NCBI RefSeq assembly: GCF_048771995.1
Contig: NC_133041.1
Location: 4,663,324 to 4,727,323 of the forward strand
Origin: Taeniopygia guttata
Taxonomy: Eukaryota
Direction of reading: 5' to 3'
Length of the DNA: 64,000 nucleotides
The notes beneath the pieces are model-generated. The model saw only the letters and a program-made list of their open reading frames with translations, made no database searches and was not told the origin of the DNA. Within the stretch, counting starts at the first letter, position 1; every line of letters starts with the position of its first letter. Positions 680-50,685 of the stretch are shown here, piece after piece. The translations under genes and the position numbers were made by a program.

Positions 680-1615
680 TGAGTCTGATACACCTGGGCA
701 GGTAAATCACACACCTGGGCAGGTAAATCACACACCTGAGGGGGTTAAACACACCTGCAGGACAACATCCAGCACGCCGACCCACCTGTGCAGGTGAGTC
801 TGATACACCTGAGGGGGTTAAACACACCTGGGCAGGTGAGTCTGATACACCTGGGCAGGTAAATCTGACACACCTGAGGGGGTTAAACACACCTGCAGGA
901 CAACATCCAGCACGCCGACCCACCTGTGCAGGTGAGGGACACACCTGAGGGGGTTAAACACACACCTGAGGGGGTTAAACACACCTGCAGGACAACATCC
1001 AGCACGCCGACCCACCTGTGCAGGTAAAGCACACCTGGGCAGGTGAGTCTGACACACCTGTGCAGGTAAATCACACACCTGAGGGGGTTAAACACACCTG
1101 GGCAGGTGAGTCTGACACACCTGTGCAGGTAAATCACACACCTGAGGGGGTTAAACACACCTGGGCAGGTGAGTCTGACACACCTGGGCAGGTGAGTCTG
1201 ACACACCTGAGGGGGTTAAACACACACCTGGGGGGGTTAAACACACCTGGGCAGGTGAGTCTGACACACCTGAGGGGGTTAAACACACCTGCAGGACAAC
1301 ATCCAGCACGCCGACCCACCTGTGCAGGTGAGTCACACCTGGGCAGGTGAGTCTGACACACCTGAGGGGGTTAAACACACACCTGAGGGGGTTAAACACA
1401 CCTGGGCAGGGAAATCACACACCTGGGGGGGTTAAACACACCTGCAGGACAACATCCAGCACGCCGACCCACCTGTGCAGGTAAAGCACACCTGGGCAGG
1501 TGAGTCTGACACACCTGAGGGGGTTAAACACACCTGGGCAGGGAAATCACACACCTGAGGGGGTTAAACACACCTGCAGGACAACATCCAGCACGCCGAC
1601 CCACCTGAGCCCTAA
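680..1615 (+). repeat. Tandem array (CACCTG-core minisatellite) containing six degenerate copies of the last ~45 nt of the EIF3C exon at 519-678 ([13 protein letters not shown] plus the donor caggtgag)
   Basis: Copies lie at about 752-796, 888-936, 982-1030, 1286-1334, 1437-1487 and 1570-1606. Five keep the GT donor; the last is truncated. Confidence 0.9.
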
Positions 1616-4600
1616 AATTGCCAAAAAAATTTCCAAAAAATGCTAAAAAAAATCCCCCAAAAATGCTAAAAAAAATCCCCCAAAATTGCCAAAAAAATCC
1701 CGCAAATTTTCCAAAAAAATTGCTAAAAAAAAACCCCAAAATTACTAAAAAAATCGCCCAAAATTGCCAAAAAAACGCCCCAAAATTGCTTAAAAAAATG
1801 CCCCAAAATTCCTAAAAAAATCACCCAAGTTTTCCACAAATCACCAAAAATTGCTAAAAAATCACCCAAAAGTTTCCAAAAATCACCCAAAATTTACAAA
1901 AAATCACCCAAAATTTACAAAAATCACCCACTTGTCTCATCTGAGACTCATCTGGGCATCCTCATTTTTTACCCTAAATCCCTCCAAAAATCCCCCTCAA
2001 AACCCCCTAAAATCACCCAAAAATCACTGAAAATTGCCAAAAATCCCCAAAATCCCCAAAACCCCCAAAATCTCCTTTTTTCCCGCAGATCCTGTACAAC
2101 CGCACCATGGTGCAGCTGGGCATCTGCGCCTTCCCTCACCTGTCCCACCTGTCCCAAGAAACCCCCTAAAACCCCCTAAAATCACCCAAAATTGCCAGAA
2201 AAGTCACCAAAAACCGCCTTAAATCACCCAAAATTGCTAAAAAATTCCCCAAAATTGCTAACAAATTTTTCCAAAATTTCTAAAAAAATCCCTCAAAAAT
2301 GCTAAAAATATTCCTAAATTTGCCCCAAAATTCCCCAAAATTGCCAAAAAAAATTCCAAAAATTGCTAAAAAAAACCACCCAGAATTTTCCAAAAATCAC
2401 CCTAAATTGCCAAAAAATCCCCCAAAATTGCCCAAAAAATCCCCCAAAATTTACAAAAAATCACCGAAAATTGTTAAAAAATCAACCAAAAATCACCAAA
2501 AAAATCCCCAAAATCCTCCCAAAATCACCAAAAATCCCCCTCAAAACCCCCAAAATCCCCCAAAAATCCCAAAAATTCCCAAAAACCCCCAAAAACCCCC
2601 CAAAAATCTCCTTTTTTTCCAGATCCTGTACAACCGCACGATGGTGCAGCTGGGCATCTGCGCCTTCCCTCACCTGTCCCACCTGTCCCAAGAAACCCCC
2701 TAAAATCACCCAAAATTGCCAGAAAAATCACCAAAAACCATCTAAAATCACCCAAAATGGCCAAAAAAATCACTAAAAACCACCTAAAATCACCCAAAAT
2801 TGCTAAAAAAATCACCCAAAATTTCAAAAAAAAAAATCCCAAAATTGCCCAAAAAATCCCCCAAAATTGCTAAAAAATCACTCAAAATTGCTAAAAAAAA
2901 ATCACACAAAATTTACAAAAAATCCCCCAAAATTGCTAAAAAATCCCCTAAAATTGCCCAAAAAATCACTCAAAATTGCTATAAAAAATCCCCCAAAATT
3001 GCCCAAAAAATCCCCCAAATTTGCTCAAAAAAATCCCCCAAAATTGCCAAAAAATCACTCAAAATTGCTAAAAAAATCACATAAAATTTACAAAAAATCT
3101 CCCAAAATTGCTAAAAAAATCCCCCCAAAGTGCCATAAAATCACCCAAAATTGCCAAAGAAATCCCTTAAAATAGCTAAAAAATCTCACAAAATTGCCAA
3201 AAAAATTCCCCAAATTTTCAAAAATAATCCCCCAAATTTTCCAAAAATCACCCAGAATCTCTAACAAAATTCCCCCAAAATGCTAAAAAATCCCCAAAAA
3301 TTGCTAAAATAAATCACCCCAAAATTTTTTTTTAAATCCCCCAAAATTGCTTAAAAATCCCAGAAAATTGCTAAAAAAATTCCCCAAAATTGCTAAAAAA
3401 ATTCCCCAAAATTGCTAAAAAAATTCCCCAAAATTGCTAAAAAAAATCACCCGAAATTGCAAAAAAAACCACCCAAAATTGTTTAAAAATCACCCAAAAA
3501 TCACCAAAAAAATCCCCAAAATCCTCCCAAAATCACCAAAAATCACCAAAAAAAACCCCAAAATTCCCAAAATCCCCAAAACTCCCCAAAACCCCAAAAA
3601 TCTCCTTTTTTTTCCCCAGATCCTGTACAACCGCACGATGGTGCAGCTGGGCATCTGCGCCTTCCCTCACCTGTCCCACCTGTCCCAAGAAACCCCCTAA
3701 AGTCACCCAAAATTGCCAAAAAAATCACCAAAAACCATCTAAAATCACCCAAAATGGCCAAAAAAATCACTAAAAACCACCTAAAATCACCCAAAATTGC
3801 TAAAAAAATCACCCAAAATTTAAAAAAAAAAATCCCAAAATTGCCCAAAAAATCCCCCAAAATTGCCAAAAAAATCACCCAAAATTGCTAAAAAAATCAC
3901 CCAAAAATGCTAAAAAATCTTCCCAAAATTGCTAAAAAGAAATCCCTTCAAAATAGCTGAAAAATCCCCTAAATTTGCCCCAAAAATCCCCCAAAATTGC
4001 CAAAAAAATCACCCAAAATTGCTAACAAAATTCCCCAAAATTGCTAAAAGAATTCCCCAAAATTGCTGAAAAATCACCCAAATTTGCTCAAAAAAATCCC
4101 CCAGAATTTTGCAAAAATCACCAAAATTGCCAATAAAATCACCCAAAATTGCCAAAAATCACCTACATTTTCCAAAAATCACCCACCTGTCCCACTTGGG
4201 ACTCACCTGGGCACCTCAAATCCTCATTTTTTACCCTAAATCCCCCTAAAAATCCATCAAAAATCTCCCTCAAAACCCTCTAAAATTCCCCCAAAGCCCC
4301 TTAAAATCACTGAAAATTGCCAAAAATCACCAAAAACCCCCAAAAATCTCCCTTTTATCCCCAGATCCTGTACAACCGCACGATGGTGCAGCTGGGCATC
4401 TGCGCCTTCCCTCACCTGTCCCAAGAAACCCCCTAAAACCCCCTAAAATCACCCAAAATTGCCAGAAAAATCACCCAAAATTGCTAATAAAATTCCCCAA
4501 AATTGCTAAAAAAATCACCCAAATTTGCCAAAAAAATTCTTCAAAAATGCAAAAAAAATTCCCAAAAAATGTTTAAAAAATTCCCCAAAATTGCTAAAAA

Positions 4601-6475
4601 AATCACCCAAGATGTACAAAAAATGACTCGAAATTGCCAAAAAATACCCCAAATATTGCCAAAAAAATTGCCCAAAAATTCCCCAAAATTGCTTAAAAAT
4701 CCCTCAAAATTGCGAAAATAAATCCCCCAAAAATGCTAAAAAACCCCCCCAAAATGCTAAAAAAATCCCCTAAAATTGCAAAAAAAATCACCCAAAATTG
4801 CCAAAAAAAGCACCCAAAATTACTAAAAAATTTCCCAAAAATGCTAAAAATTCCCTTTAATTTGCCCCAAAAATCAGCCAAAATTGCCAAAGAAGTCCCT
4901 CAAAAATGCTAAAAAAATCCCCCAAAATTGCCATAAAATCCCCCAAAATTTTCCAAAAATCCCCCAAAATTGCCAAAAAAATCCCCCAAAAATCCCCAAA
5001 AACCCCCCAAAATCCCCAAAAATCCCAAAAAATCTCCTTTTTCCCAGCTCCTGTACAACCGCACGATGGTGCAGCTGGGCATCTGCGCCTTCCCTCACCT
5101 GTCCCAAGAAACCCCCTAAAATCACCCAAAATTCCCAAAAAAATCCCCCAAAATTGCTAAAAAAATCCCCCAAAATTGCCATAAAATCTCCCAAAATTGC
5201 TAAAAAATCCCGCAAAGCTGCTAAAAAAATCACCCAAAATTACCCAAAATATCCCCCAAAATTTACAAAAAACTACCCAAAAATGCTGAAAAATCCCCCA
5301 AAATTGCTAAAAAGAAATCCTCTCAAAATAGCTGAAAAATCCCCTAAATTTGCCCCAAAAATCCCCCAAAATTGCTCAAAAAATCCCCCAAAATTTCTTT
5401 AAAAATCCCTCAAAAATGCTAAAAAATGACCCAAAAATCCCCCCTAATTTACAAAAAATCACCCAAAATTGCTATAAATATTCCCTAAAATTGCTAAAAA
5501 AATCACTCAAAAGTCCCATAAAATCACCCAAAATTGCCAAAAATCACCCACATTTTCCAAAAATCACCCAAAATTGCTAAAAAAATCCCCCAAAATTGCC
5601 AAAAAAATTCCCAAAAATGCTAAAAATATCCCCCAAAATTTACAAAAAATTCCCAAAAATTGCCAAAAAATTACCAAAAAAATTCCCAAAATTCCCCAAA
5701 ATCCCAAAAAAAACCCCCAAAATCTCCAAAACTTTTTTTTTTGCAGATCCTGTACAACCGCACGATGGTGCAGCTGGGCATCTGCGCCTTCCCTCACCTG
5801 TCCCAAGAAACCCCTGAAAACCCCCTAAAATCACCCAAAATTGCCAGAAAAGTCACCAAAAACCATCTAAAATCACCTAAAATTGCCAAAAAAATTACAA
5901 AAAACCGCCTTAAATCACCCAAAATTGCTAAAAAAATCACCCAAAATTTCAAAAAAAAAATCCCAAAATTGCCAAAAAAATCCCCCAAATTTGCCCCAAA
6001 AAATCCCCCAAAATGCTAAAAAATCTCACTAAATTGCCAAAAAACTTCCTAAAATTCCTAAAAAATCCCACAAAATTGCTAAAGAAATCCCCCAAAAATG
6101 ATAAAAAAGTCACCCAGAATTTTCCAAAAATCACCCAAAATTGCCAAAAAAATCCCCCAAAATTGCTAAAAGAATCACCCAGAATGTTCCAAAAATCACC
6201 CAAAATTGCCAAAAAAAATCCCAAAAAATGCTAAAAAATATTCGAAGTTGCTAAAAAAACATCAAAATTGCCATAAAATCACCCAAAATTGCCCAAAAAC
6301 TCACCCAAAATTGCCAAAAAAATTCAACTAAATTGCCAAAAAAATCCCCCAAAATTTACAAAAAATCCCCCAAAAATCACCCAAAATTGTTAAAAAATCA
6401 CCCAAAAATCACAAAAAAACACCCCAAAATTCCCAAAACCCCCAAAAAACCCAAAAACCCCTTTTTTCTCCCCAG
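1616..6475 (+). repeat. 4.8-kb A-rich microsatellite-like array (ccaaaattgccaaaaaaatcacc variants) organised as ~0.7-kb higher-order units, each carrying a copy of the first ~50 nt of the next EIF3C exon with its acceptor (cag|ATCCTGTACAACCGCACGATGGTGCAGCTGGGCATCTGCGCCTTCC)
   Basis: Pseudo-exon copies lie at about 2089, 2623, 3619, 4364, 5048 (an atc-to-ctc variant) and 5747. The real exon starts at 6476. After gccttcc, every copy diverges to ctcacctgtccc. Confidence 0.9.
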
Positions 6476-9339: not shown

Positions 9340-10600
9340 ACCAAAATTTGGGGGGTTTTGGGAAAATTTGGGCGAAATTTGGGCGATTTTTGGCCATTTT
9401 TTGGTGATTTTATAGTGATTTTTGGGGGGTTTTTAGGGGCATTAAAGGGTTAAAAATGAGGGTTTGAGGTGCTCAGGTGAGTCTCAGGTGAGCCTCAGGT
9501 GAGTCAGGTGAGTCCCACCTGGGCCAATTAAAAATTTTGGGGGATTTTGGGAAATTTTGGGCGAATTTTGGCAATTTTGAGCAATTTTACGGTGATTTTT
9601 TAGAGATTTTCGGGGGTTTTTGGGGAGGATTTTCGGCAGGAAATGAGGATTTAAAGTGATCAGGTGTGTCTCAGGTGAGTCTCACCTGGGCAGGTGTGGC
9701 CAGGTTAAAAAAAACTGTGAATTTTGGGGGATTTTGGGCAATTTTGGGTGAATATTGCCAATTTCGGATAATTTTTGGCATTTTTAAGTGATTTTTGGGG
9801 GTTTTGGGGTGATTTTGGCCGTTTTGGGGGGATTTGGGGAGGTTCAAAGTCTGGGACCTGTTCCCCGAGGCCGACCAGGTGCGCGCCATGCTGGTCAGGT
9901 GAGCGACCCCAAATTTTGGGGGGTTTTGGGAAAATTTGGGCGAAATTTCGGCGATTTTTGGCCATTTTTGGGCGATTTTATAGCGATTTTTAGGGGTTTT
10001 TTTGGGGCGTTAAGGGTTAAAAATGAGGATTTGAGGTGCTCAGGTGAGTCTCAGGTGAGCACACCTGGACACAGGTGAAAAAATTTAGGGGGAATTTTCA
10101 GGGATTTTGGGCAATTTTGGGCAAATTTTGGCCATTTTTGGGTGATTTTAGAGGGATTTTAGAGGGATTTTTGGGGGTTTTTGGGGAGATTTACGGTTAA
10201 AAATGAGGATTTGAGGTGCTCAGGTGAGTCTCAGGTGAGTCTCAGGTGAGCACACCTGGACACAGGTGAAAAATTTTTGGGGTAAATTTGGGCAAATTTT
10301 GGCAATTTTGGGTGAATTTTCGGCAATTTTGAGCGATTTTAGGGCGGTTTTATGGGGATTTTCGGGGTTTTTTGGGAGATTTAGGGTTAAAAATGAGGAT
10401 TTGAGGTGCTCAGGTGAGTCTCAGCTGAGTCTCACCTGGGCAGGTGTGGCCAGGTAAAGAAAAACGTGAATTTCGGGGAATTTTGGGCGAATTTTGGCAA
10501 TTTTGGGTGATTTTAGGGGGATTTTAAGAGAATTTGGGGTAAAAAATGTGGATTTGAGGTGCCCAGGTGCACCCAGGTGTGCCCAGGTAAGGAAATTTAG
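9340..10600 (+). repeat. Intronic array of ~250-bp units ending in gtgctcaggtgagtctcaggtgagc; one unit (9848-9898) contains a copy of the 3' end of the EIF3C exon at 9172-9331 with its donor
   Basis: gtctgggacctgttccccgaggccgaccaggtgcgcgccatgctggtcag|gtgagcg at 9848-9898 duplicates 9281-9338. Confidence 0.85.
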
Positions 10601-15300: not shown

Positions 15301-16413
15301 GGGGTTACCTGCAGCACAGGTGAGTCACCTGTGACCCCGTTTGGGGCCATTTTGGGGTGATTTTGGTCGGGTTTGGGGCAATTTTGGGCAGTTTTGGGGC
15401 AATCTCAGGTGGGTTTTCAGGGGTTACCTGCAGGACAGGTGAGCCTCACCTGGGCCCACTTTAGACCTCACTGGATGAGCCCAAGGTCACCACGATGATG
15501 GGGTGACCCCATTTGGGGCCATTTTGGGGTGATTTTGGGCAGGTTTGGGGTGATTTTTGGTAGTTTTGGGGTGATTTCGGGTGGGTTTTTGGGGGTTACC
15601 TGCAGGACAGGTGAGTCTCACCTGGGCCCACTTTAGACCTCACTGGATGAGCCCAAGGTCACCATGATGGTGGGGTGACCCCATTTGGGGCCATTTTGGG
15701 GTGATTTTGGGCAGTTTTGGGGCGATTTTGGGTGGGTTTTTGGGGGGGTTACCTGCAGGACAGGTGAGTCTCACCTGGGCACACCTGCAGGCCTCGCTGG
15801 ACCAGCCCACGGCCACGGTGATGATGGGGTGACCCCGTTTGTGGCCATTTTGGGGTGATTTTGGGCAGTTTTGGGGTGATTTTGGATGGGTTTTTGGGGC
15901 GGTTACCTGCAGGACAGGTGAGTCTCACCTGGGCACACCTGCAGGCCTCGCTGGACCAGCCCACAGCCACGGTGATTGTGGGTTGACCCCATTTGATGCC
16001 ATTTTGGGGTGATTTTGAGCAGGTTTGGGGCAGTTTTGGGGTGATTTCGGGTGGGTTTTTGGGGGTTACCTGCAGGACAGGTGAGCCTCACCTGGGCCCA
16101 CTTAAGACCTCACTGGATGAGCCCAAGGCCACCATGATGATGGGGTGACCCCGTTTGGGGCCATTTTGGGGTGATTTTGGGCAGTTTTGGGACGATTTTG
16201 GGTGGGTTTTTGGGGGGTTACCTGCAGGACAGGTGAGTCTCACCTGGGCACACCTGCAGGCCTCGCTGGACCAGCCCACAGCCACGGTGATGATGGGGTG
16301 ACCCCGTTTGGGGCCATTTTGGGGTTATTTTGGGCAGTTTTGGAGCGATTTCGGGTGGGTTTTTGGGGGGGTTACCTGCAGGACAGGTGAGTCTCACCTG
16401 GGCACACCTGCAG
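15300..16413 (+). repeat. About seven tandem ~120-bp units, each containing a copy of the acceptor and first ~45 nt of the EIF3C exon at 16414 (cacctgcag|GCCTCGCTGGACCAGCCCACGGCCACGGTGATGATG..)
   Basis: Close copies lie at about 15783, 15939 and 16250. Diverged copies (..ctcactggatgagcccaaggtcaccacgatgatgggg) lie at about 15461, 15630 and 16100. Confidence 0.88.
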
Positions 16414-22589: not shown

Positions 22590-23740
22590 ACTTGGGGGGC
22601 ACTTGGGGGGCGGCTGTGGGGTGGTTGTGGGGGTTTGGGGTCACTGATGGAGCAGTTGTGGGGCAGTTATGGGGTCACTTATGGGGCAGTTATGGGGTTT
22701 GGGGTCACTTATGGGGCACTTATGGGGCAGTTATGGGGTTTGGGGTCACTTATGGGGCACTTATGGGGCAGTTATGGGGCAATTATGGGGTTTTGGGGTC
22801 AATTGTGGGGCGGTTATGGGGTCAATTATGGGGCAGTTATGGGGGCACTTGGGGGGTGCAGGGGGCACTGGGGGAGTGTGGGGGGCACTAATGGGGCAGT
22901 TATGGGGCAGTTATGGGTCACTAATGGGGTGTGGGGGTCACTTATGGGGCAGTTATGGGGTTTTGGGGTCACTTATAGGTCACTAATGGGGCAGTTATGG
23001 GGCAGTTATGGGGGTTTGGGGTCACTTATGGGGCAGTTATGGGGTTTTGGGGGCACTTGTGGGGCAGTTTCGGGGTCACTAATGGGGTTTTGGGGTCACT
23101 AATGGGTCACTTGTGGGTCATTTGTGGGTCACTGATGGGGTTTGGGGTCACTTATGGGTCACTGATGGAGTTTGGGATCACTTGTGGGGCAGTTTCGGGG
23201 TCCCTTATGGTGCTCGGGGGTCACTTGTGGGGCAGGGAGGAGTTTGGGGTCACTTATGGGTCACTCGTGGGTCACTGATGGGGTTTTGGGGTCACTTATG
23301 GGTCACTTACAGGTCACTCATGGGGTGTAGGGGTCACTTGTGGGTCACTAATGGGGTTTTGGGGTCACTTATGGGGTGTAGGAGTCACTGATGGGGCAGT
23401 TATGGGGTCACTTGTGGGTCGTTTTAGGGTCACTTGTGGGGCAATTATGGGTCACTGATGGGGTTTTAGGGTCACTTGTGGGTCATTGATGGGGTTTTGG
23501 GGTCACTTACGGGGCAGTTCTGGGGTCACTTGTGGGGCAGTTCTGGGGTCACTTGTGGGGTTTGGGGTCACTTGTGGGGCAGGGAGGCGCAGCTGCAGCA
23601 GAACTGTGGGGCAGCGCTCCGATGTGTGGGGCAGTTCTGGGTCACTTGTGGGGCAGGGAGGCTCTCAGTGTCACTTGTGGGGCAGTTATGGGGCAGTTCT
23701 GGGTCACTTGTGGGGCAGTTATGGGTCACTTGTGGGGCAG
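22590..23740 (+). repeat. Array of ggggtcacttatggggcagttatgg units; its last units (about 23575-23640) carry a copy of the 5' half of the PRODH2 exon at 23741
   Basis: gcagggaggcgcagctgcagcagaactgtggggcagcgctccgatgtgtggggcag at 23577-23632 copies 23738-23793. Confidence 0.85.
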
Positions 23741-23861
23741 GGAGGCGCGGCTGCAGCAGAACTGTGGGGCGGCGCTCCGATGTGTGGGGCTGGCGGCGGC
23801 CGCGGGCCCCGAACCCGCGATGCAGCTGAAGCTGACGGCGCTGCTGGACCCACGGCTCTGC
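23741..23861 (+). CDS. PRODH2: PRODH2 exon, translating (G)EARLQQNCGAALRCVGLAAAAGPEPAMQLKLTALLDPRLC
   Basis: Aligns to human GEAWYEGNLGAMLRCVDLSRGLLEPPSLAEASLMQLKVTALTSTRLC. The acceptor is tggggcag|g and the donor ctctgc|gtgagt. Confidence 0.78.
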
Positions 23862-23869: not shown

Positions 23870-24900
23870 GGCGGGTGTGGGGCAGAGGGGATCTGTGGGG
23901 CAGGGATCTGTGGGGCAGGGGGATCTATGGGGTGGGATCTGTGGGGCAGGGTGTGGGGCAGGGGTATGGGGTCTATGGGGCTGAAGCTGACGGCGCTGCT
24001 GGACCCACGGCTCTGCGTGAGTGGGGCGGGGGGATCTGTGGGGCGGGATGTGGGGCAGGGTGTGGGGTCTATGGGGTGGGGATCTGTGGGGCGGGATCTA
24101 TGGGGCAGGGTGTGGGGCAGGGATGTGGGGCAGGGTGTGGGGTCCATGGGGCAGGGGGATGTGTGGGGCAGGGGGATCTGTGGGGTGGGATCTGTGGGGC
24201 AGGGTGTGGGGTGGGGATGTGGGGTCTATGGGGTCTATGGGGCAGGGGATGTGTGGGGAAGGCAGATGTGGGGTGGGATCTGTGCGGTGGGATCTGTGGG
24301 GCAGGGGTATGTGTGGGGCAGGGGGATCTATGGGGCAGGGACCTATGGGGCAGGGGTGTGGTGGGATCTGTGGGGCAGGAGATCTGTGGGGCAGATTTGG
24401 GATCTATGGGGCAGATTTGGGATCTATGGGGCAGGGCTGTGATCTATGGGGCAGATTTAGGATCTATGGGGCAGGATTGGAATCTATGGGGCAGATTTGG
24501 ATCTATGGGGCAGATTTGGGATCTATGGGGCAGATTTGGGATCTATGGGGCAGATTCGGGATCTATGGGGCAGATTTGGGATCTATGGGGCAGGATTGGG
24601 ATCTATGGGGCAGATTTGGGATCTATGGGGCAGATCAATGGGGCAGGATCGGGATCTATGGGGCAGGATTAAATCTATGGGTCAGGATTAAATCTCTGGG
24701 GCACATTCGGATCTATGGGGCAGATTTGGATCTATGGGGCAGGATTGGGATCTATCGGGCAGGATTGGGATCTATGGGGCAGATTTGGATCTATGGGGCA
24801 GATTTGGGATATATGGGGCAGATTTGGATCTATGGGGCAGATCTATGGGGCAGGATCGGGATCTATGGGGCAGGATTAAATCTATGGGGCAGGATTAAAT
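23870..24900 (+). repeat. Array of gggatctatggggcag(atttgg) units, with a second copy of the 3' half of the PRODH2 exon at 23741-23861 embedded at 23975-24022 (ggctgaagctgacggcgctgctggacccacggctctgc|gtgagtgggg)
   Basis: Seen directly. Confidence 0.85.
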
Positions 24901-24938
24901 CTATGGGGCAGCTCACCCCTCCCTGGCCACGCCCCCAG

Positions 24939-25139: not shown

Positions 25140-25220
25140 GCGCCGGCGCTCGATTGGCTGAGCCCGGACGAGAACGAGGCTCTGGGGCGGGGCCTGGGGC
25201 GGCTGCAGCGCGTGGTGCAG
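25140..25220 (+). CDS. PRODH2: PRODH2 exon, translating APALDWLSPDENEALGRGLGRLQRVVQ
   Basis: Aligns to human PRODH2 ...AEQNQHLRASLSRLHRVAQ. The acceptor is ttttcag|gcg and the donor gtgcag|gtgagg. Confidence 0.7.
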
Positions 25221-25224
25221 GTGA

Positions 25225-25976
25225 GGGGGCGGGGCCGGAGCACCTGGGCACACCCAAAACACACCTGGGCACACCTGGGCACACCTGGGGGCACCTGGGG
25301 CACACCTGGGCACACCTGGGGTTACCTGGGCACACCTGAGATACACCTGGGCACACCTGGGGCACACCTGGGCACACCTGGGCACACCTGGGACACGCCC
25401 CCGACCCCCCAAATTCTCATTTCCTGCCCCAAAATGACCCAAAATGTCCCAAAATTGTCCCAATTCCCCTACCTGGGCACACCTGAGCACACCTGAGATA
25501 CACCTGGGCACACCCAAAACACACCTGGGCACACCTGGGGGCACCTGGGCACACCTGGGCACCCCTGGCACACCTGGGCACACCTGGGCATGGCCCCGAC
25601 CCCCAAATTCTCATTTCCTGCCTCCAAAATAACCCAAAATCTCCCAAAATTGTCCCAATTTCCTTACCTGGGCACACCTGGGCACCCCTGGGCACACCTG
25701 GGATACACCTGGGGGTTCCTGAGATACACCTGGGCACACCTGGGGGATTTTTTGGGCACACCTGGGCACACCTGGGCACACCTGGGGGTACCTGGGCACA
25801 CCTGGGCACACCTGGGCACACCTGGGCACACCTGGGGGGTATTTTGGGCACCCCTGGGCACACCTGGCACACCTGGGGGATATTTTGGGCACACCTGGCA
25901 CACCTGGGCACACCTGGGCACACCTGGGCACACCTGGGGGGTATTTTGGGCACCCCTGACACCCCTGTGCCCGCAG
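25225..25976 (+). repeat. CACCTGGGCACACCTGG minisatellite with interspersed ccaaaattgtcccaatt.ccctacctgg units
   Basis: Seen directly. Confidence 0.85.
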
Positions 25977-26129
25977 GCGGCGGTGGCCGGGGGCGTGCAG
26001 GTGCTGGTGGACGCGGAGCTGTCCCACCTGAACCCGGCCCTCACCTGCCTCACCTGCGGCCTCATCTGGCGCCACAACCGGGCGGGGCCCCGGCCCTGGG
26101 TCTGGTACACCTGGCAGGCCTACCTGAGG
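25977..26129 (+). CDS. PRODH2: PRODH2 exon, translating AAVAGGVQVLVDAELSHLNPALTCLTCGLIWRHNRAGPRPWVWYTWQAYLR
   Basis: Strong match to human PRODH2 YARAQHVRLLVDAEYTSLNPALSLLVAALAVRWNSPGEGGPWVWNTYQACLK. The acceptor is cccgcag|gcg and the donor ctgagg|gtgagc. Confidence 0.85.
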
Positions 26130-27117
26130 GTGAGCGCACCTGGGCACCTGGGGGCACCTGGGCGCACCTGGGGGCACCTGGGGGCACCTGGGAGGGGCGG
26201 GGCAAAAAAAACCCGGTGGAAATGGGGTGGAAAATGGGGATTTTGGGGGGTTTTGGGGGTACCTGGGAACACCTGGGGGGGTAAAAACACACCTGGGCAC
26301 AGCTGGGCACAGCTGGGGCACATTTTGGGGTACTTGGAGCACACCTGGGCACATTTTGGGCACATTTTGGGCACACTTTGGGCACACCTGGGCACACCTG
26401 GGGTATATTTTGGGCACATTTTGGGCACATTTTGGGCACACCTGTCCCCCCCAGGACACCAAGGCCCGGCTTGGGGCACACCTGGGCACACCTGGGGCAC
26501 ATTTTGGGGTACCTTGGGCAAACCGGGGGCACACCTGGGTACACCTGGGGCACATTTTGCGGTACCTGGGGCACACCTGGGCCCACTTAAATACACCTGG
26601 GCACACCTGGGCACACCTGGGGCACATTTTGGGTATATTTTGGGCACACCTGTCCCCCCAAGACACGGAGTCCCGGCTCGGGGCTCACCTGGGCACACCT
26701 GGGGGGTACCTGTGACACACCTGGGCACACCTGGGGGATATTTTGGGCACATTTTGGGCACATTTTGGGCACACCTGGGGGTACCTGTGTCACACCTGTC
26801 CCCCCAGGACACGGAGTCGCGGCTCGGGGCTCACCTGGCGCAGGTGGGGCACACCTGGGGGATATTTTGGGTATATTTTGGGTATATTTTGGGTATATTT
26901 TGGGCACACCTGTCCCCCCAGGACACGGAGTCCCTCCTCGGGGCTCACCTGGGCACACCTGGGTGATATTTTGGGCACATTTTGGGTATATTTTGGGCAC
27001 ACCTGTCCCCCCAGGACACCAAGTCCCGGCTCGGGGCTCACCTGGCGCAGGTGGGGCACACCTGGATGATATTTTGGGTATATTTTGGGTATATTTTGGG
27101 CACACCTGTCCCCCCAG
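26130..27117 (+). repeat. CACCTGGGCACA / cattttgggcacattttggg array carrying five copies of the acceptor and first ~40 nt of the PRODH2 exon at 27118 (cccccag|GACAC[CG][AG]AG[GT]CCCGGCT[CT]GGGGC.CACCTGG)
   Basis: Copies lie at about 26445, 26652 (caag, acceptor lost), 26800, 26908 and 27008. Several extend to tcacctggcgcaggtg before diverging. Confidence 0.88.
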
Positions 27118-27284
27118 GACACGGAGTCCCTGCTCGGGGCTCACCTGGCGCAGGTGCGGGGGGCGGGGCTGCGCTGTGGGGTGAAGTTGGTGCGCGGGGC
27201 TTACCTGGCCCAGGAGCAGGGGCGGGCCCGGGAGCGCGGCCGCCCCGCCCCCACCTGGGACACACCTGAGCAGACCTCGGCCAG
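27118..27284 (+). CDS. PRODH2: PRODH2 exon, translating DTESLLGAHLAQVRGAGLRCGVKLVRGAYLAQEQGRARERGRPAPTWDTPEQTSA(S)
   Basis: Matches human DTFERLGRDAEAAHRAGLAFGVKLVRGAYLDKERAVAQLHGMEDPTQPDYEATSQS, including the conserved GVKLVRGAYL motif. The acceptor is cccccag|gac and the donor ggccag|gtacgg. Confidence 0.85.
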
Positions 27285-27289
27285 GTACG

Positions 27290-29040
27290 GGAATTTGGGG
27301 GGATTTGGGGGGATTTTGGGGTAATATTTGGGAAATTTTGGTGGAATTTTTGTGGGGATTTTGGTGGAATTTTTTGGAAATTTTGGGGAAATTTGGAATA
27401 GTTTTTGGGAAAATTTGGTGGAATTTCAGTGAAATTTTGGGGGAAATTTTGGGGGAATTTTGGGGGATTTTGGGGGAATTTTGTGGGAATTTTGTGGGAA
27501 TTTTGTGGGAATTTTGTGGGAAATTTGAAATGATTTTGGGGGAATTTGGGGAAAATTTGGGGAAATTTTGGGGGAATTTTGGAGAATTTTGGGGGAATTA
27601 TGTGAGAATTTTAAGGGAATGTAGAGGGAATTTGGGGGGAATTTTGGGGAAATTTGGAATAACTTTGGGGAAATTTTGAGAGAATTTTTGGGAAAATTTG
27701 GTGGAATTTTTGGGAAATTTGGGGTAAATTTTGGGAAAATTTGGGGGAAGTATGGGAGAATTTAAGGGAATGTAGAGGGAATTTGGGGGGAATTTTGGGG
27801 AAATTTGGAATAGCTTTTGGGAAAATTTGGTGGAGCTTTGGGAAATTTTGGAGGGAATTTTGGAGTAATTTTGGAGGGAATTTTGGGGGAATTTTGGGGG
27901 AATTTTGGGTGAATTCGCACCGATTTTTGGGGTGATTTTTGGGTGAATTTTGGCTGATTTTGGGGTGATTTCTGATCCAATTTTTGGGTGAATTTGGGGT
28001 GATTTTTGTGTGAGTTTGGGCCAATTTTGGGGTGATTTGGGGGTGATTTCTGATCCAATACTTGGGTGATTTTGGGGTGATTTTGGGGTGAATTTTGGGT
28101 GAATTTTGGGTTATTTTGGGGTGATTTCTGATCCGATTTTTGGGTGAATTTTGGGCGATTTTGGGGTGATTTCTGATCCGATTTTTGGGGTGATTGTGGG
28201 CCGATTTTTGGGTGATTTTGGGGTGATTTCTGTGTGAATTTTGGGTGAATTTGGGCCGATTTCTGGGTGAATTTTGGGTGAATTTTGGGGTGATGTTGGG
28301 GTGAATTTTGGGTGAAATTTGGGTGAATTTTGGCCAATTTTGGGGTGATTTTGGGGTGATTTATGAGCCAATTTTTGGGTGATTTATGAGCCGATTTTTG
28401 GGTGATTTTTGAGCCGATTTTTGGGTGAATTTTGGGTGAACTCGCACCGATTTTTGGGGTGATTTTTGGGTGATTTCTGATCCAATTTTTGGGTGATTTT
28501 TGGGTGAATTTTGGGTGATTTATGAGCCGATTTTTGGGTGATTTTTGAGGCGATTTTGGGGTGAATTTTGGGTGAACTTGCACCGATTTTTAGGTGATTT
28601 CTGAGCCAATTTTTGGGGTGATTTTGGGATGAATTTTGGCCGATTTTGGGGGTGATTTCGGGGTGAATTCCGGGTGAATTTTGTGTGATTTTGGGGGTGA
28701 ATTTTGGGTGAATTTTGGGTGATTTTTGGGCTGATTTTGGGGTGAATTTTGGCGGATTTTTGGGTGATTTTTGGGGTGAATTTTGGGTGAATTTCTGGGT
28801 GATTTTGGGGTTACTTTTGGCCGATTTCTGGGTGAATTTCGGGTGACTTTTGGGCCGATTTTGGGGTGAATTTTGGGTGATTTCTGGGTGAATTTTGGCT
28901 GATTTCTGGTTGAATTTTGGGTGAATTTGGGCCGATTTTTGGGGTGATTTCTGGGTGATTTCTGGGTGAATTTTGGGTGAATTTTGGCTGAATTTTTGGG
29001 TGACTTTTGGGTGAATTTAGGCCGATTTTGTGTCTCTCTC
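27290..29040 (+). repeat. G/T-rich minisatellites (gggaattttgggg..., then ttttgggtgaattttgggtgatttctgagccgatttttgg); the second family recurs at 33960-34560
   Basis: Seen directly. The minus-strand ORFs at 27611-28583 are repeat-encoded. Confidence 0.85.
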
Positions 29041-29046
29041 CCCCAG

Positions 29047-31055: not shown

Positions 31056-31132
31056 GATGTCGCGGGTCCCGCCCGGCTCCGTTTGCTTCGGGCAACTGCG
31101 GGGGATGGGCGACAGCCTGAGCCTGGCGCTGG
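31056..31132 (+). CDS. PRODH2: PRODH2 exon, translating (G)MSRVPPGSVCFGQLRGMGDSLSLAL(A)
   Basis: Matches human ...GTVCFGQLLGMCDHVSLALGQ. The acceptor is cccccag|g and the donor ctgg|gtgagtgacc. The donor sequence is also the first unit of the downstream satellite. Confidence 0.82.
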
Positions 31133-32430
31133 GTGAGTGACCCTGAGTGACCCCTGTGACCCCTGAGTGACCCCTGTGTGACCCTGAGTGACCCCTGTGA
31201 CCCCTGTGACCCTGAGTGACCCTGAGTGACCCTGAGTGACCCTGAGTGACCAATGAGTGACCCTGAGTGACCCTGAGTGACCCTGAGTGACCCTGAGTGA
31301 CCCTGAGTGACCCCGAGTGACCCCAATCTGACCCCTGAGTGACCCCTGAATGACCCCTGAGTGACCCCTGAGTGACCCCTGTGACCCCTGAGTGACCCTG
31401 AGTGACCCCTGAGTGACCCTGTGACCCCTGAATGACCCCTGAGTGACCCTGAGTGACCCTGAGTGACCCTGAGTGACCCCTGAGTGACCCCTGTGACCCT
31501 GAGTGACCCCTGAGTGACCCCTGTGACCCCTGAGTGACCCCTGTGACCCTGAGTGACCAATGAGTGACCCTGAGTGACCCTGAGTGACCCTGAGTGACCC
31601 CTGAGTGACCCCTGAGTGACCCCTGAGTGACCAGTGACCAATGAGTGACCCCTGAGTGACCCTGAGTGACCCCTGAGTGACCCTGAGTGACCCCTGTGAC
31701 CCCTGAGTGACCCCTGAGTGACCCCTGAGTGACCCTGAGTGACCCTGAGTGACCCTGAGTGACCAATGAGTGACCCCTGAGTGACCCCTGTGACCCCTGA
31801 GTGACCCCTGAATGACCCAGAGTGACCCTGAGTGATCCCAAATCCCCCAAATCCCCCAAAATCCCCCCAAAATCCCCCCAAAAATCCCCAAAAATCCCCT
31901 TAAATGACTCCAAACTGACCCCAAGTGACCGAGTGACCCTGAGTGACCCTGAGTGACCCCAAATCCCCCAAAATGCCTCAAAAATCCCTAAAAAAAACCC
32001 TAAAATTACCCCAAACTGACCCTGAGTGACCCCAAATGACCCCGAATGACCCTGAGTGACCCCTGAGTGACCCCTGAGTGACCAATGAGTGACCAATGAG
32101 TGACCCCTGAGTGACCCAAAATCCCCCAAAAGGCCTCAAAAATCCCCCAAAAAACCCCTAAAATTACCCCAAACTGACCCCAAATGACCCCAAATGACCC
32201 TGAGTGACCCCTAAGTGACCCCTGAGTAAGCCCTGAGTGACCACTGACCACTGAGTGACCCCTGAGTGACCCCAAATCCCCCAAAATCCCCCAAAAATCC
32301 CCCAAAAATCCCTAAAAAATCCCCCAAAATCCCCTTAAACGACCCCAAATGACCCCAAATGACCCCGAGTGACCCCCGAGTGACCCCCGAGTGACCCCCG
32401 AGTGACCCCGAGTGACCCCGAGTGACCCCC
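31133..32430 (+). repeat. GTGACCC(C)TGAGTGACC minisatellite beginning exactly at the PRODH2 donor gtgagtgacc
   Basis: The repeat unit reproduces the splice-donor consensus GTGAGT about 75 times. Confidence 0.9.
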
Positions 32431-40759: not shown

Positions 40760-43140
40760 GACACCCCTGACCCCTGACCTCTGACCCCTGACCTCTGACC
40801 TCTGACCCCTGACCACTGACCACTGACCCCTGACCACTGACTGCTGACCTCCTGACCCTCCAAATGACCCCTGAGTGACCCCGAACCACCCCTGAGTGAC
40901 CTTTTGACCTCCCAAACCGCCCCTAGGTGACTTTTTGACCCTCTGACCGACCCCTGACTGACCCCTTGACCCCTGACTGACCCCTTGACCACCAGAATGA
41001 CCCCTTGTCCACCTGAGTGTCCCCTTGACCACCCGAGTGACCCCTTGACTGACCCCTTGGCCCCTTGAGTGACCTTTTGACCTCCCAAACCACCCCTAAA
41101 TGACCTTTTAACCCCCTCAATGACCCCTGACTGACCCCTTGACCACCTGAGTGACCCCTCGACTGACCCCTTGAGTGACCTCTTGACCCTCCCAATGACC
41201 CCTGAGTGACCTTTTGACTGCCCAAACCACCCCTAAATGACCTTTTAACCCCCTAAATTACTTTTTAACCCCCTGACTGACCCCTTGATGACCCAAGTGA
41301 CCCCTTGTCCATCTGAGTGACCCCTCGACTGACCTCTTGACCCCTTGACTCACCTCTTGACCCTCCAAATGACCCCTTGAGTGACCTCTTGACCCTCCAA
41401 ATGACCCCTAAGTGACCCCGAACCACCCCTGAATGACCTTTTGACCTCCCAAACTGCCCCTAAATAACCTTTTAACCCCCTAAATGACTTTTTAACCCCC
41501 CGCCTGACCCCTGACTGACCCCGTGACCCTTGTGTGACCCTTGACTGACCCCTGACTGACCCCTGACTGACCCCTTGACCCCTTGACTGACCTCTTGACC
41601 CTCCCAATGACCCCTGAGTGACCTTTTGACTGCCCAAACCACCTTTAAATGACCTTTTAACCCCCCAAATGACGTTTTAACCCCCTCAATGACTTTTTAA
41701 CCCCCCAAGTGACCCCTGACTGACCCCTTGACCACCTTACTGAACCCTTGACCCCTTGAGTGACCTTTTGACCTCCCAAACCGCCCTTAAATGACCTTTT
41801 AACCCCCTCAATGACTTTTTAACCCACCAAATGACCCCTGAAGGACTTGTTAACCCCCTAAATGACCCCTGCCTGACCCCGTGACCCCTGACTGACCCTT
41901 GACTGACCCCTGACTGACCCCTGACTGACTCCTTGACCACCCGAGTGACCCCTTGACTGACCTCTTGACCCTCCAAATGATCCCTAAGTGACCCCGAACG
42001 ACCCCTGAATGACCTTTTGACCCCCCAAACTATCCCTAAACGACCTTTTAACCCCCTGACTGACCCCGTGACCCCTGAATGACCCCTTGACCACCTGAGT
42101 GACCCCAAACCACCCCTGAATGACCTCTTGACCCTCCAAATGACCCCTGAATGACCTTTTGACCACCCAAACCGGCCTTAAATGACTTTTTAACCTCCTA
42201 AGTGACTTTTTAACTCCCTTAATGACTTTTTAACCCCCCAAATGACCCCTGACTGACCCCTTGTCCACCTGACTGACCCCTAACCCCTTGAGTGACCTTT
42301 TGACCACCCAAACCATTTTTAAATGGCCATTTAACCCCCAAAATGACTTTTTAACCCACCAAATGACCCCTGAAGGACTTGTTAACCCCCCGCCTGACCC
42401 CTGCCTGACCCTGTGACCCCTGACTGACCCCTGTGTGACCCCTGCCTGACCCCTGACTGGCCCCTTGACCACCTGAGTGACCCCTTGACTGACCTCTTGA
42501 CTCTACAAATGACCCCTGAATGACCCCGAACCACCCCCTAATGACCTTTTGACCACCCAAACTGTCCCTAAACGACCTTTTAACCCCCTGACTGACCCCT
42601 GACTGACCCCTTGACCACCCGAGTAACCCCTTGACCACCCCTTGACCCTCTGAGTGACCCCTCGACTGACCCCTTGACCCCTTGAGTGACCTTTTGACTG
42701 CCCAAACCACCTTTAAATGACCTTTTAACCCTTTATGTGACTTTTTAAACCTCCTAAATGACCTTTTAATGCCCCAAATGACTTTCTAACCCCCTGACTG
42801 ACCCCTGCCTGACCCCGTGACCCCTGTGTGACCCCTGTGACCCCCTCAGCGGTGCGAGGCGGCGTTCGCCACGCGGGACCGGCTGCGGGCGCATTCGGCG
42901 CGGCACCAGGAGAAATCACTGACTGACCCCTGACTGACCCCTGACTGACCCCTGCCTGACCCCCTGACCCCTGTGTGACCCCTGTGACCCCTGTCAGCGG
43001 TGCGAGGCGGCGTTCGCCACGCGGGACCGGCTGCGGGCGCATTCGGCGCGGCACCAGGAGAAATCACTGACTGACCCCTGACTGACCCCTGACTGACCCC
43101 TGCCTGACCCCCTGACCCCTGTGTGACCCCTGTGACCCCT
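40760..43140 (+). repeat. tgacccctgactgacccc / tgacc.tttaacccc arrays with two truncated copies of the MAZ exon-4 head (42848-42915 and 43006-43072)
   Basis: ccctcag|CGGTGCGAGGCGGCGTTCGCCACGCGGGACCGGCTGCGGGCGCATTCGGCGCGGCACCAGGAGAAATC is present three times. Only the third copy continues into the rest of the exon. Confidence 0.88.
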
Positions 43141-43145: not shown

Positions 43146-43296
43146 CGGTGCGAGGCGGCGTTCGCCACGCGGGACCGGCTGCGGGCGCATTCGGCGCGGC
43201 ACCAGGAGAAATCCCCGTGTCCCGTCTGCGGGAAACTGCTCAGCCCCGCCCACCTCGGGGAGCACCTGCGCGGCCACGGACACGCCCCCAGGACAG
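43146..43296 (+). CDS. MAZ: MAZ exon, translating RCEAAFATRDRLRAHSARHQEKSPCPVCGKLLSPAHLGEHLRGHGHAPRT(G)
   Basis: Matches human KCEAAFATKDRLRAHTVRHEEKVPCHVCGKMLSSAYISDHMKVHSQGP. The acceptor is gtcag|cgg and the donor acag|gtcagc. Two truncated copies of the 5' part lie just upstream at 42848-42915 and 43006-43072. Confidence 0.85.
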
Positions 43297-48899: not shown

Positions 48900-50590
48900 C
48901 AGAGGAAATGGGGGAAAAAAGAGAGAAACGGGAAAAATTAGTTAGAAATGGGGAAAAATGAGTTTAAAATGGGGTAAACGGGGGAAAAATGGGGGAAAAA
49001 TGGGGGAAATTGGGAACATTGGGGGAAAATGGAGGAAATGGGGAAAAATGGAGGAAATGGGGAAAAATTTGGGAAAATGGGGAGAAAATGGGGGAAATTG
49101 GGGAAAAAATTGGGGGAAATAGGGAAAAAATGGGGAAATTGGGGGGAAATGGGGAAATGGAAGAAATAGGGGGAAATGGGAAAAAAGGGAAAAATAGGGG
49201 GAAAAATTGGGGGAAAAATTGGGGGAAAAATTGGGGGAAAAATTGGGGGGAAAAATTGGGGGAAAAATGTGGAAATTGGGGAATAGATGGGGGAAATTGC
49301 AGAAAATGGGGGAAATGGGGAAAAAAGGGGGAAATTTGGGATAAAATGGGGGAAATAGGGAAAATTGATAAAAACGGGGGAAATCGGGAAAAAATGGGAA
49401 ATTTTGGATTAGAGTTGGGGGAAATTGGGGAAAAATGGGGGGAAATGGGAAAAAAATGAGGTAAACATGGGGAAAATTGGGGAAAATGAGTTAAAAATGG
49501 GGAAAATGGGGGAAAATGGGGAAAATGGGGGGAAATGGGGGAAATGGGGCAAAAAATGGGGGAAATTAGTTTAAAATGGGGAAAATTAGTCAGAAATGGG
49601 GAAAGTTAGTTAAAAATGGGGAAAGTTAGTTAAAAATTAGGGAAATGGGGAAAAACGGGCAAAATGGGAAAAAAATTGGGAAAAATGGGGGGAAATCAGG
49701 AGAAAATAGGGGAAATGGGGGGAAAAAGAGAGAAATGGGAAAAACGAGTTAAAATGTTGGAAATAAGGGAAAAAATTGGGGAAATGGGGAAAAAATGGGG
49801 GAAATGGGGAAAAATGGGGGAAATGAGTTTAAAATGGTGAAAATGAATTGAAAATGGGGAAAATGAGTTAAAATGGGGAAAATGGGGAAAAGACGGGGAA
49901 AACAGGGAAAAAATGGGGAAAATGAGTTAAAAATGGGCAAAATTGAGGGAATAGGGGAAATTCGGGGGGAATTGGGGAAATTTGGGGGGAAATGGGGAAA
50001 TTTGGATTGAAATTGGGGCAGGATTGGGATCTGTGGGGCAGGGCGGGGATCTATGGGGCAGACAGGATCTATAGGGCAGGATTTCAGGATCTATAGGTCA
50101 GACAGGATCTATAGGTCAGGAATGATCTATGGGTCAGGATCTGTGGGTCAGATCTATGGGGCAGACCTGTGCCAGCGCCAGCCCCCAGAGGGATCCATGG
50201 GGCAGGATTGGGATCTATGGGTCAGGATTTCAGGATCTATGGGTCAGATCTATGGGTCAGACAGGATCTATGGGTCAGGATTTCAGGATCTATGGGTCAG
50301 GATTTCAGGATCTATGGGTCAGGATTTCAGGATCTATGGGTCAGACAGGATCTATAGGGCAGGAATGATCTATGGGTCGGATCTATGGGTCAGACAGGAT
50401 CTATGGGGCAGATCTATGGGGCAGACCTTGGCCAGCGCCAGCCCCCAGAGGGATCCATGGGGCAGGATTGGGATCTATGGGTCAGGATTGGGATCTATGG
50501 GTCAGACAGGATCTATGGGTCAGGATTTCAGGATCTATGGGTCAGGATGGATCTATGGGTCAGATCTATGGGTCAGATCTATGGGGCAGA
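48900..50590 (+). repeat. ggggaaaatggggaaat array (48900-50000), then ggatctatgggtcaggatttca array (50000-50590) with two embedded copies of the CLN3 exon edge cagcgccagcccccagagg (about 50169 and 50428)
   Basis: The real exon edge is at 50592-50612. Confidence 0.8.
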
Positions 50591-50591: not shown

Positions 50592-50685
50592 CTGAGCCAG
50601 CGCCAGCCCCCAGAGGCGCCGCAGGCGGACCCAGCGCAGCGACGAGCGGGAGGCGAAGACGCCGGCCTGGTACAGCAGCTGCAGC
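50592..50685 (-). CDS. CLN3: CLN3 exon, translating (T)[31 protein letters not shown]
   Basis: Aligns to human [32 protein letters not shown]. The acceptor is gcccag|gctg and the donor ctcag|gtctgc. Confidence 0.85.

Follow-up and report, generated by a model that had tools for sequence, protein, structure and literature searches.

Why do the introns of a songbird gene hold repeated copies of the edges of the exons that flank them? The question is raised by a stretch of 64,000 nucleotides of the zebra finch Taeniopygia guttata (assembly GCF_048771995.1, contig NC_133041.1, positions 4,663,324 to 4,727,323 of the forward strand; hereafter the window, in whose coordinates all positions are given), and above all by intron 6 of PRODH2 (26130..27117, + strand), where a first-pass annotation of the sequence had reported a series of copies of an acceptor and the exon head behind it. 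In the chicken, Hron et al. (Genome Biol Evol 2026, PMC12954441; bioRxiv 10.1101/2025.09.16.676548) described dot-chromosome introns that are filled by imperfect local repeat expansions (sequence stuttering), and within this class exon stuttering, in which a lateral part of a coding exon together with its splice site is tandemly repeated in the adjacent intron while the exon stays intact. Our results indicate that the copies in the window are very probably exon stuttering, that is, the exon-touching subset of sequence stuttering in the introns of avian dot chromosomes. The phenomenon is already published for chicken, and what is new here is its extent in songbirds, with several added points that are set out below.

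PRODH2 was modelled at 20442-32614 on the + strand with ten canonical AG/GT exons, which give an uninterrupted 423-codon frame with a stop (423 aa). The model was 100% identical over the shared exons to the T. guttata RefSeq hydroxyproline dehydrogenase isoforms, which carry Pfam PF01619, and the next best protein matches came from other estrildid and passeroid finches (72-78%). Masking with Tandem Repeats Finder (TRF; 563-650 rows) showed that tandem repeats make up 82% of the window, and that the unmasked islands are essentially the exons. For the 29 introns of the window the median TRF coverage was 0.93, against a median of 0 for exons, and the median gap between array and splice site was 6 nt at donors and 13 nt at acceptors, so that the splice signals would be nearly all the unique intron sequence that is left. 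The record that holds the zebra finch PRODH2 protein is 5.74 Mb long, which falls within the size of zebra finch dot chromosomes (5.99 +/- 1.57 Mb), and in the chicken EIF3C and MAZ, two genes that are also found in the window, lie on dot chromosome 38 (PMC12954441). The locus is therefore probably songbird dot-chromosome euchromatin, an assignment made from synteny.

Intron 6 of PRODH2 consists of a GCACACCTGG / GGGCACATTTTG minisatellite (TRF coverage 0.92) in which five copies of the acceptor and head of exon 7 are embedded. The source, exon 7 (DTESLLGAHLAQVRGAGLRCGVKLVRGAYL...; 27118..27284, +), is intact, is entered in phase 0 and agrees with the T. guttata RefSeq protein at 100% identity. 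All five copies announced by the first-pass annotation were present. They have the form cacctgtcccccc(c)ag|GACAC…GGGGCTCACCTGG, hold 31-42 nt of the exon head, and begin at 26455, 26662, 26808, 26922 and 27015, before the real exon at 27118. The most distal copy (26441..26485, +) is also the most diverged; behind its acceptor stands a 31-nt head that reads ACC-AAG-GCC-CGG and is nearest to the exon of the house sparrow Passer domesticus (27/31 matches, against 25/31 to the zebra finch exon). Copy 2 (26648..26692, +) has a 31-nt head behind an acceptor whose AG has mutated to AA (CAA for CAG), and copy 4 (26908..26952, +) has an acceptor and a 31-nt head that joins the satellite at CACCTGG. Copies 3 (26794..26849, +) and 5 (27001..27056, +) carry the acceptor with 42 nt of exon. 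A 103-bp period over 26791-27156 (3.5 copies, 82% matches by TRF) runs through the proximal part of the intron.

Three details of the earlier description had to be changed. It had stated that cccccag was kept at all five copies; the acceptor is kept in four, while the 26662 copy reads CAA and the 26455 copy has diverged (25/31). It had also described one copy that reached 50 nt into exon 7, and we found instead two such longer copies (26808 and 27015), each of about 42 nt. These two end in GCGCAG|GTGGGG. Because intron 6 is in phase 0 and a GTGGGG donor follows (at 26844 in copy 3), 26808-26843 and 27015-27050 are complete in-frame pseudo-exons of 36 nt. Their donors score at least 8 with a position weight matrix (PWM), as good as the median real donor of the locus. 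Inclusion of either pseudo-exon would insert DTESRLGAHLAQ.

The 34 exons were then compared by blastn-short with the exon-masked window. Two kinds of control were used: the window reversed, so that its composition and repeat structure were preserved, and five block shuffles. The highest control scores were 34.2 bits for the reversed window and 38.2 bits for the shuffles. The real window yielded 29 matches above 38.2 bits, with scores up to 135 bits, and 26 of them lay in the intron adjoining the source exon and on the same strand. Scores of 54-135 bits were obtained for 24 of these 26; the two others, both from CLN3, scored 42.1 bits, which equals the cut-off of Hron et al. and makes them the weakest accepted matches. 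All 16 copies in upstream introns came from exon 5' edges, all 10 copies in downstream introns came from 3' edges, and the source began within 1 nt of the exon border in 22 of the 26. Copied edges were found in EIF3C (four), PRODH2 (three), MAZ (one) and CLN3 (one), and 8 of the 29 introns (28%) were affected, which agrees with the earlier statement that the pattern is not specific to one gene. The splice sites were mostly kept: CAG in 20 of 21 acceptor copies, and GT in 10 of 11 donor copies, with the donor score unchanged. Only two of 32 copies, the pseudo-exons at 26808-26843 and 27015-27050, have both splice sites and an open frame; the other 30 are one-sided fragments. An origin as retrocopies or from a transposon was ruled out, since the copies include the intronic flanks of the splice sites and lie on the same strand in the adjacent intron.

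The other copied edges of PRODH2 belong to exon 3 (…MQLKLTALLDPRLC; 23741..23861, +), the source of both head and tail copies. Its first 50 nt, behind a ggggcag acceptor, recur in intron 2 (23583..23632, +; 96% identity) with the junction at TGTGGGGC, which is common to the exon and the satellite unit; its last 37 nt (23980-24016, 100%) recur with the donor gtgagtggggcg in intron 3 (23980..24028, +). Both halves of this exon, which the first-pass annotation had called the MQLKLTAL exon, are thus copied as it had said, and so are the edges that it had noted in MAZ near 42848 and 43006 and in CLN3 near 50169 and 50428. MAZ (38258-43296, +) was placed by peptide matches, as were the 3' part of EIF3C (519-16824, +), CLN3 (60649 down to 48708 and beyond, -) and SGF29 (from 61856, +); the exons of EIF3C, MAZ and CLN3 align to the human proteins. 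The MAZ source is a zinc-finger exon (CQRCEAAFATRDRLRAHSARHQEK…; 43146..43296, +), and MAZ intron 2 holds two 148-bp units (42850..43065, +), each with the acceptor and a 68-nt exon head (42850-42917 and 42998-43065) that is 100% identical to the exon. In CLN3, an exon at 50592..50685 (-) with its donor at 50592 is the source of two tail copies, each with the last ~25 nt and the donor gtctgcccc, in a GACCCATAGATCCTG satellite (50167..50451, -; copies at ~50427-50451 and 50167-50191).

EIF3C, absent from the earlier list, is the most extreme gene of the window, with four exon edges copied. Six tail copies of exon 1 (519-678), with its last 37-42 nt, lie at 752..1607 (+); all start at the exon's CACCTG and five of the six keep the GT donor. 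Exon 2 (6476-6839) has given six head copies with the acceptor and 46 nt, which share one breakpoint and are set in a 21-22-nt satellite over 3.7 kb (2089..5792, +). The intron between these exons (679-6475) therefore presents five intact decoy donors (793-1480) and then six intact decoy acceptors (2089-5747), and would put the choice of splice sites to a stringent test in nature. Further, the exon at 9172-9331 is represented by one tail copy with the last 50 nt and the donor (9849..9898, +), and the exon at 16414-16576 by three head copies with the acceptor and 32-36 nt, set in a 154-bp repeat (15791..16295, +) and also present in Lonchura. The tail of exon 1 (CCTGCAGGACA…AGGTGAGTCT) is similar to a segment of the intron-5 repeat unit, and the match is too short to tell from chance in sequence rich in CACCTG and CAGGTG.

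Within a family, the copies break at one position of the exon: at 46 nt in six of six copies of the EIF3C exon-2 head, at CACCTG in all copies of the EIF3C exon-1 tail, at 68 nt in MAZ and at about 25 nt in CLN3. A common breakpoint suggests one founding event in each family, followed by amplification of a larger unit. For PRODH2 exon 7 the breakpoints fall into two classes, at 31 nt and at ~39-42 nt, and therefore point to at least two founding events. In three of about ten classes the breakpoint falls within a match to the satellite unit, namely CACCTGG (7 nt; exon 7 against GCACACCTGG), CACCTG (EIF3C exon-1 tail) and TGTGGGGC (8 nt; PRODH2 exon-3 head). Randomly chosen exon positions gave a mean homology of ~1 nt, and no more than 2% of them reached the observed length. 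This randomisation is informative for the heads of PRODH2 exons 7 and 3; the values for the EIF3C exon-6 head and exon-1 tail were inflated by unlisted diverged copies and were disregarded, and three families were without an independent occurrence of the flank. Judged from the junction sequences, short homology probably helps a founding event and is not a general requirement, as most classes have 3 nt of homology or less.

We compared the PRODH2 loci of Lonchura striata (Estrildidae), Passer domesticus (Passeridae), Agelaius phoeniceus (Icteridae), Catharus ustulatus (Turdidae), Myiozetetes cayanensis (Tyrannidae) and the pigeon Patagioenas fasciata, which were screened with each species' own exons or, for distant species, with the zebra finch exon peptides. 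Lonchura had eight copies of the exon 2 tail, seven of the exon 3 head and one of the exon 7 head. Passer had two or three of the exon 3 head, seven of the exon 5 tail, ten of the exon 8 tail and three of the exon 9 tail; Agelaius had five of the exon 7 head; Catharus had one each of the exon 7 head and exon 8 tail and five of the exon 10 head; and Myiozetetes had four of the exon 6 tail. At the peptide level no exon-edge copy was found at the pigeon PRODH2 locus. Stuttering is thus general in passerines, and the copied edges turn over between species. Two breakpoints recur all the same. In zebra finch, Lonchura and Agelaius the copies of the exon-7 head end at nt 31, and the junction, GCTCACCTGG|gcacacctgg, is identical in all three; a cut at nt 49-50 of the exon-3 head is common to zebra finch, Lonchura and Passer. 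For the EIF3C exon-6 head, copies are shared with Lonchura only. In Passer, the ten exon-8 tail copies (Passer locus 14891-16413) are of two kinds that follow each other in turn, an internal fragment of 32 nt (exon positions 55-86) and one of 56-58 nt that extends to the donor, which indicates a higher-order unit of two copies. In the RefSeq PRODH2 protein of Lonchura there is an insert of 44 residues in which the GRRLRARG motif is duplicated. It appears to lie over the eight copies of the exon-2 tail and donor (Lonchura locus 12261-13832); apparently either a decoy copy has entered the gene model or the insert is a real isoform.

The copies resemble the exon of their own species much more closely than another species' copies. 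In the Agelaius copies of exon 7, 28-31 of 31 positions agree with the Agelaius exon and 23-25 of 31 with that of the zebra finch, which would follow either from a recent independent origin at the same homology or from concerted evolution. At a few sites, some zebra finch copies show states that are lost from the zebra finch and Lonchura exons and kept in Passer. These are CGG (Arg), against CTG in estrildid exons; ACC-AAG, which is one CpG transition from the ACC-GAG of Passer and Agelaius, where estrildid exons have ACG-GAG; and, in the most distal copy, GCC. These few sites suggest that some copies predate the estrildid substitutions, with younger or converted copies lying nearer the exon.

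The intronic satellites are conserved by position. When the 8-mer spectra of the nine PRODH2 introns were compared among zebra finch, Lonchura, Passer and Agelaius, orthologous introns had a median cosine of 0.43 and non-orthologous ones 0.005 (Mann-Whitney p about 4e-27). The best cross-species match was the orthologous intron for eight of the nine zebra finch introns, except for intron 4 in Agelaius (introns 4-5 are not delimited there); intron 5 best matched intron 6, and the CACCTG family occurs in both. In all four species intron 6 contains 29-76 CACCTG and at most two CAGGTG, and intron 9 opens with GTGAGTGAC followed by a GAGTGAC-family array, the true donor being the sole GTRAGT in three of the four. 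The lengths of orthologous introns differ up to 10-fold between species. In four passerine species from three families, each PRODH2 intron has therefore retained a satellite family of its own. The comparison of sister species that the first-pass annotation had proposed as a check thus returned not unrelated intronic repeats but the same repeat families by position, together with exon-edge copies, in Lonchura, Passer and Agelaius.

The array behind PRODH2 exon 9 (…GDSLSLALG; 31056..31132, +) is of another kind. The donor of this exon, GTGAGTGACC, is conserved in the four passerines, and from intron position +2 a (C)TGAGTGACC(C) minisatellite with CCCCAAAATCCCC patches extends over 31134..32420 (+). 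TRF places the array proper at 31134-31839 with about 69 units of CTGAGTGACC, and further patches follow to ~32420. The 1312-nt intron (31133-32444) contains 72 GAGTGACC and 63 TGAGTGACC. The first-pass annotation had described an array of about 75 units and 1.3 kb here, by which the intron would begin with reiterated near-consensus 5' splice sites. The array is real, but its units are no such sites, since the true donor at 31133 is the single GTRAGT of the intron, next to 58 CTGAGT and 6 ATGAGT. The repeat therefore starts at +2 and has C or A in place of the invariant +1 G, and the sole GT within a unit, GA|GTGACC, is mismatched to the consensus at +5 and +6. The short-unit arrays are thus not runs of usable splice donors.

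Counts over all introns gave the same picture. GTRAGT occurred 27 times in sense and 13 times in antisense in 42.6 kb, and the sense ones lay mostly in the EIF3C exon-tail copies; the PRODH2 introns had two in sense beyond the real donors, and PWM-scored donors were fewer in sense (48) than in antisense (86). The count of donor motifs that had been suggested as a check therefore revealed no excess. Nor can the array be attributed to one donor as its seed: the GAGTGAC family forms at least six blocks in the introns or flanks of PRODH2, MAZ and CLN3 (at 31-33, 40-42, 43-44.4, 46-48.7 and 56-57 kb), in both orientations relative to transcription. The 10-nt donor GTGAGTGACC of PRODH2 exon 9 (31133) is common to two CLN3 exons, and a third CLN3 exon has GTGAGTGGCC (CLN3 minus-strand sites 51650, 48707 and 60573); two of these donors directly precede GAGTGAC-family arrays. 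Such common donors suggest either that satellites homogenise intron starts across genes or that they arise repeatedly from similar donors. In its opposite orientation the satellite reads GGTCACTCAG (56340-57198 and 40600-40691) and provides acceptor context, as in a CLN3 exon with ggtcactcag|GTGTGG at 56339 and a MAZ exon with ggtcactccccag|G at 40692, so that both orientations of one repeat family, GGTCACTCAG at acceptors and GAGTGAC at donors, stand at splice sites.

These arrays are central to a different explanation, that splice sites themselves, donors especially, seed the satellites, and that introns consequently open with tens of near-consensus 5' splice sites. It is attractive at exon 9, where GTGAGTGAC directly precedes the GAGTGAC-family array in all four passerines, and arrays in general start a median of 6 nt past donors; units that contain exon sequence, moreover, were necessarily copied from exon to intron. 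Yet the absence of GTRAGT from the array units, the lack of sense enrichment of this motif, and the spread of the GAGTGAC family over three genes in both orientations are difficult to reconcile with it, and the donor shared by PRODH2 exon 9 and two CLN3 exons fits a satellite that abuts or overwrites intron ends equally well. We therefore consider seeding by splice sites possible but rather unlikely. The short-unit arrays such as (C)TGAGTGACC may better be regarded as old satellites, each specific to its intron, whose register next to the splice site leaves the repeated units without a donor GT. Of the broader proposal that satellites seeded at exon edges are a general property of the locus, the generality of edge copies (8 of 29 introns) stood, while the seeding was only partly supported: edge specificity does not imply targeting, and the exon 9 array cannot be credited to one donor.

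The copies might instead be kept for splicing, as functional decoys in intron detention or as in-frame mini-exons. The splice dinucleotides kept in 30 of 32 copies, the two complete 36-nt pseudo-exons, whose donors score no worse than half of the real donors, and the Lonchura RefSeq model that includes sequence over exon-2 tail copies could be read in this way. However, 30 of the 32 copies have a single splice site, the copied edges differ between close relatives, the breakpoints lie in satellite homology and not at functional boundaries, and in one decayed acceptor AA stands for AG; the RefSeq isoforms X2-X4 of the zebra finch skip exons 7, 8 or 6 and make no use of the copies, and recent duplication or gene conversion would by itself leave the copies highly similar to the exon, with no need of a function. 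A functional role of this kind is accordingly improbable. Even less credible is an assembly artefact, that is, mis-joins or over-expansions of near-identical tandem repeats, for all that the region is 82% tandem repeat, that some units are 98-100% identical (MAZ) and that such regions are known as hard to sequence. The same architecture is present in independent assemblies of Lonchura, Passer, Agelaius, Catharus and Myiozetetes, with the same breakpoints for two exon edges, the copies have substitutions of their own, including ancestral codons, and the chicken cases were checked with raw nanopore reads (PMC12954441).

Exon stuttering, the reading that we prefer, could arise as follows. A founding tandem duplication would have one breakpoint in the exon and the other in the intronic satellite, and could come about by replication slippage, by template switching or by exchange out of register. 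The unit would then be amplified as the flanking arrays undergo unequal exchange, and amplification of a single founding unit would explain why one breakpoint is seen throughout a family. Ongoing exchange or turnover would keep copies near their own exon, while older distal copies would decay and retain ancestral codons. A duplication that runs from the upstream intron into the exon would leave a truncated head with its acceptor, the intron segment again, and the intact exon, and its mirror case would leave a tail with its donor downstream. Duplications with both breakpoints in the exon, or of a whole exon, would change the mRNA and be selected against, and purely intronic ones would be ordinary intron stuttering. 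Selection would thus purge the exon-disrupting events, and the rule that heads lie upstream and tails downstream may follow from the geometry of boundary-straddling duplications together with selection, with no need for targeting of edges. The remaining copies would be tolerated because nearly all have one splice site and so could not be defined as exons.

Several points weigh against this reading. The proportion of stuttered introns (28%) far exceeds the 3.4% in chicken, which may reflect the locus, the species or a smaller search space, and the analysis covers one zebra finch haplotype, whereas intron-length polymorphism among individuals is a defining feature in chicken. The junction homology is 3 nt or less in six or seven of the ten breakpoint classes, and the microhomology test was partly contaminated for two EIF3C families. 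An ancient origin with concerted evolution and a recurrent independent origin at the same homology are inseparable here, and the proposed mechanism is drawn from the anatomy of the sequence.

If the first of these origins applied, the exon-edge copies could be long-lived partners of their exons, with tens of millions of years of gene conversion between exon and copy. This is a doubtful extension of our reading, raised because Estrildidae share one breakpoint with Icteridae in the exon 7 head and another with Passeridae in the exon 3 head, because the copies follow the exon of their own species, and because ancestral passeroid codons persist in some zebra finch copies. Were it true, and were copies also to convert the exon, stuttering would act as an inbuilt mutator of the first and last codons of dot-chromosome exons, and would offer a concrete mechanism by which the proteins of avian 'hidden' genes evolve fast and the genes are lost. 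Whatever their age, the copies are predicted decoy splice sites, which annotation and RNA-seq mapping on dot chromosomes should account for.

Other parts of the window were affected by repeats as well. The RefSeq zebra finch PRODH2 protein begins with 53 residues (MPGSMGQEGSVGQEGSMG…; residues 1-53) that are a read-through translation of a 186-bp tandem repeat (20062-20442) upstream of the conserved sequence, and in other finches PRODH2 starts much nearer to the conserved sequence. For a mitochondrial enzyme the ATG at 20421 (MGRRVGQVQAQL…) seems the likelier start codon; either expansion of the repeat has reached the annotated coding sequence or the model is over-extended. PRODH2 exons 4 (24939-25019) and 5 (25140-25220) are both 81 nt long, are separated by a 120-nt intron and have the 14-mer CGATTGGCTGAGCC in common, which may be due to an old partial exchange between neighbouring exons. 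EIF3C intron 2 (6851-8924) is filled by a 143/285-bp repeat of about 14 copies (76-82% matches), which is AT-richer and differs from the 10-22-nt satellites elsewhere in the window. Between EIF3C and PRODH2 a 27-bp array, TTTCTCCCCTCACATTTTCCCGCCTTT, spans 17462-18677 with about 46 copies (87% matches), and this intergenic DNA is filled with repeats as much as the introns are. CLN3 (-) and SGF29 (+) stand head to head ~1.2 kb apart (60649-61856), and 60570-62099, which includes this interval, is among the few stretches of the window without TRF masking.

With regard to known systems, decoy exons or pseudo-exons that modulate intron retention are also intronic and lie with authentic-looking splice sites beside a real exon. 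They differ from the copies described here, nearly all of which are one-sided fragments, and the edges of which turn over between species. The T2T zebra finch genome (bioRxiv 10.1101/2025.10.14.682431) and Smeds et al. (bioRxiv 10.1101/2025.10.17.683159) concern the same species and chromosome class. They report that over 70% of the intron sequence on dot chromosomes consists of minisatellites whose units are multiples of 10-11 bp, with an abundance of direct repeats, A-phased repeats and G-quadruplex (G4) motifs, and they explicitly link the minisatellites to the sequence stuttering of chicken. The passages searched make no mention of exon edges or splice sites copied into the arrays; the word 'splice' is absent from them, and 'exon' is used for coverage figures only. 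A full-text literature search returned no other paper that uses "sequence stuttering" or "exon stuttering". Classical minisatellite dynamics (slippage, unequal exchange and gene conversion) share with our locus the head-to-tail arrays, copy-number variation between species, homogenisation within species and junctions at short homology. In contrast to classical minisatellites, the arrays here take the place of almost the entire intron, have stayed at the same intron through the depth of Passeroidea, and repeatedly recruit coding sequence and splice signals.

The closest match is the stuttering of chicken reported by Hron et al. (PMC12954441), whose catalogue of exon stuttering includes EIF3C and MAZ (chicken chr38) and in whose text and supplements PRODH2 and CLN3 are not mentioned. 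More than 90% of the chicken sources lie within 1 nt of the exon border, with a median length of 36 bp and a median copy number of 4. The two systems agree in the repeat-filled introns, the copies of edge and splice site, the intact exon, sources ~1 nt from the border and tens of bp long, and few to tens of copies. They differ in that the present case comes from the zebra finch and adds PRODH2 and CLN3, and in the share of introns affected (8 of 29 here, 3.4% of dot-chromosome introns in chicken). Hron et al. found that the repeats in orthologous introns of related species differ in structure and sequence, which implies independent expansion; our finding that the PRODH2 satellite families and two exon breakpoints are common across passerine families qualifies this statement. 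The homology at junctions and the splice competence of the units were analysed here and not there. Exon stuttering, documented so far only in chicken, is thus pervasive in songbirds, with, among the loci screened, about a quarter of the introns affected at this zebra finch locus and multiple PRODH2 edges copied in five passerine species, and to its published description we add the positional conservation of satellites, the recurrence of breakpoints at short homologies, and copies that evolve in concert with their exon yet keep some ancestral states.

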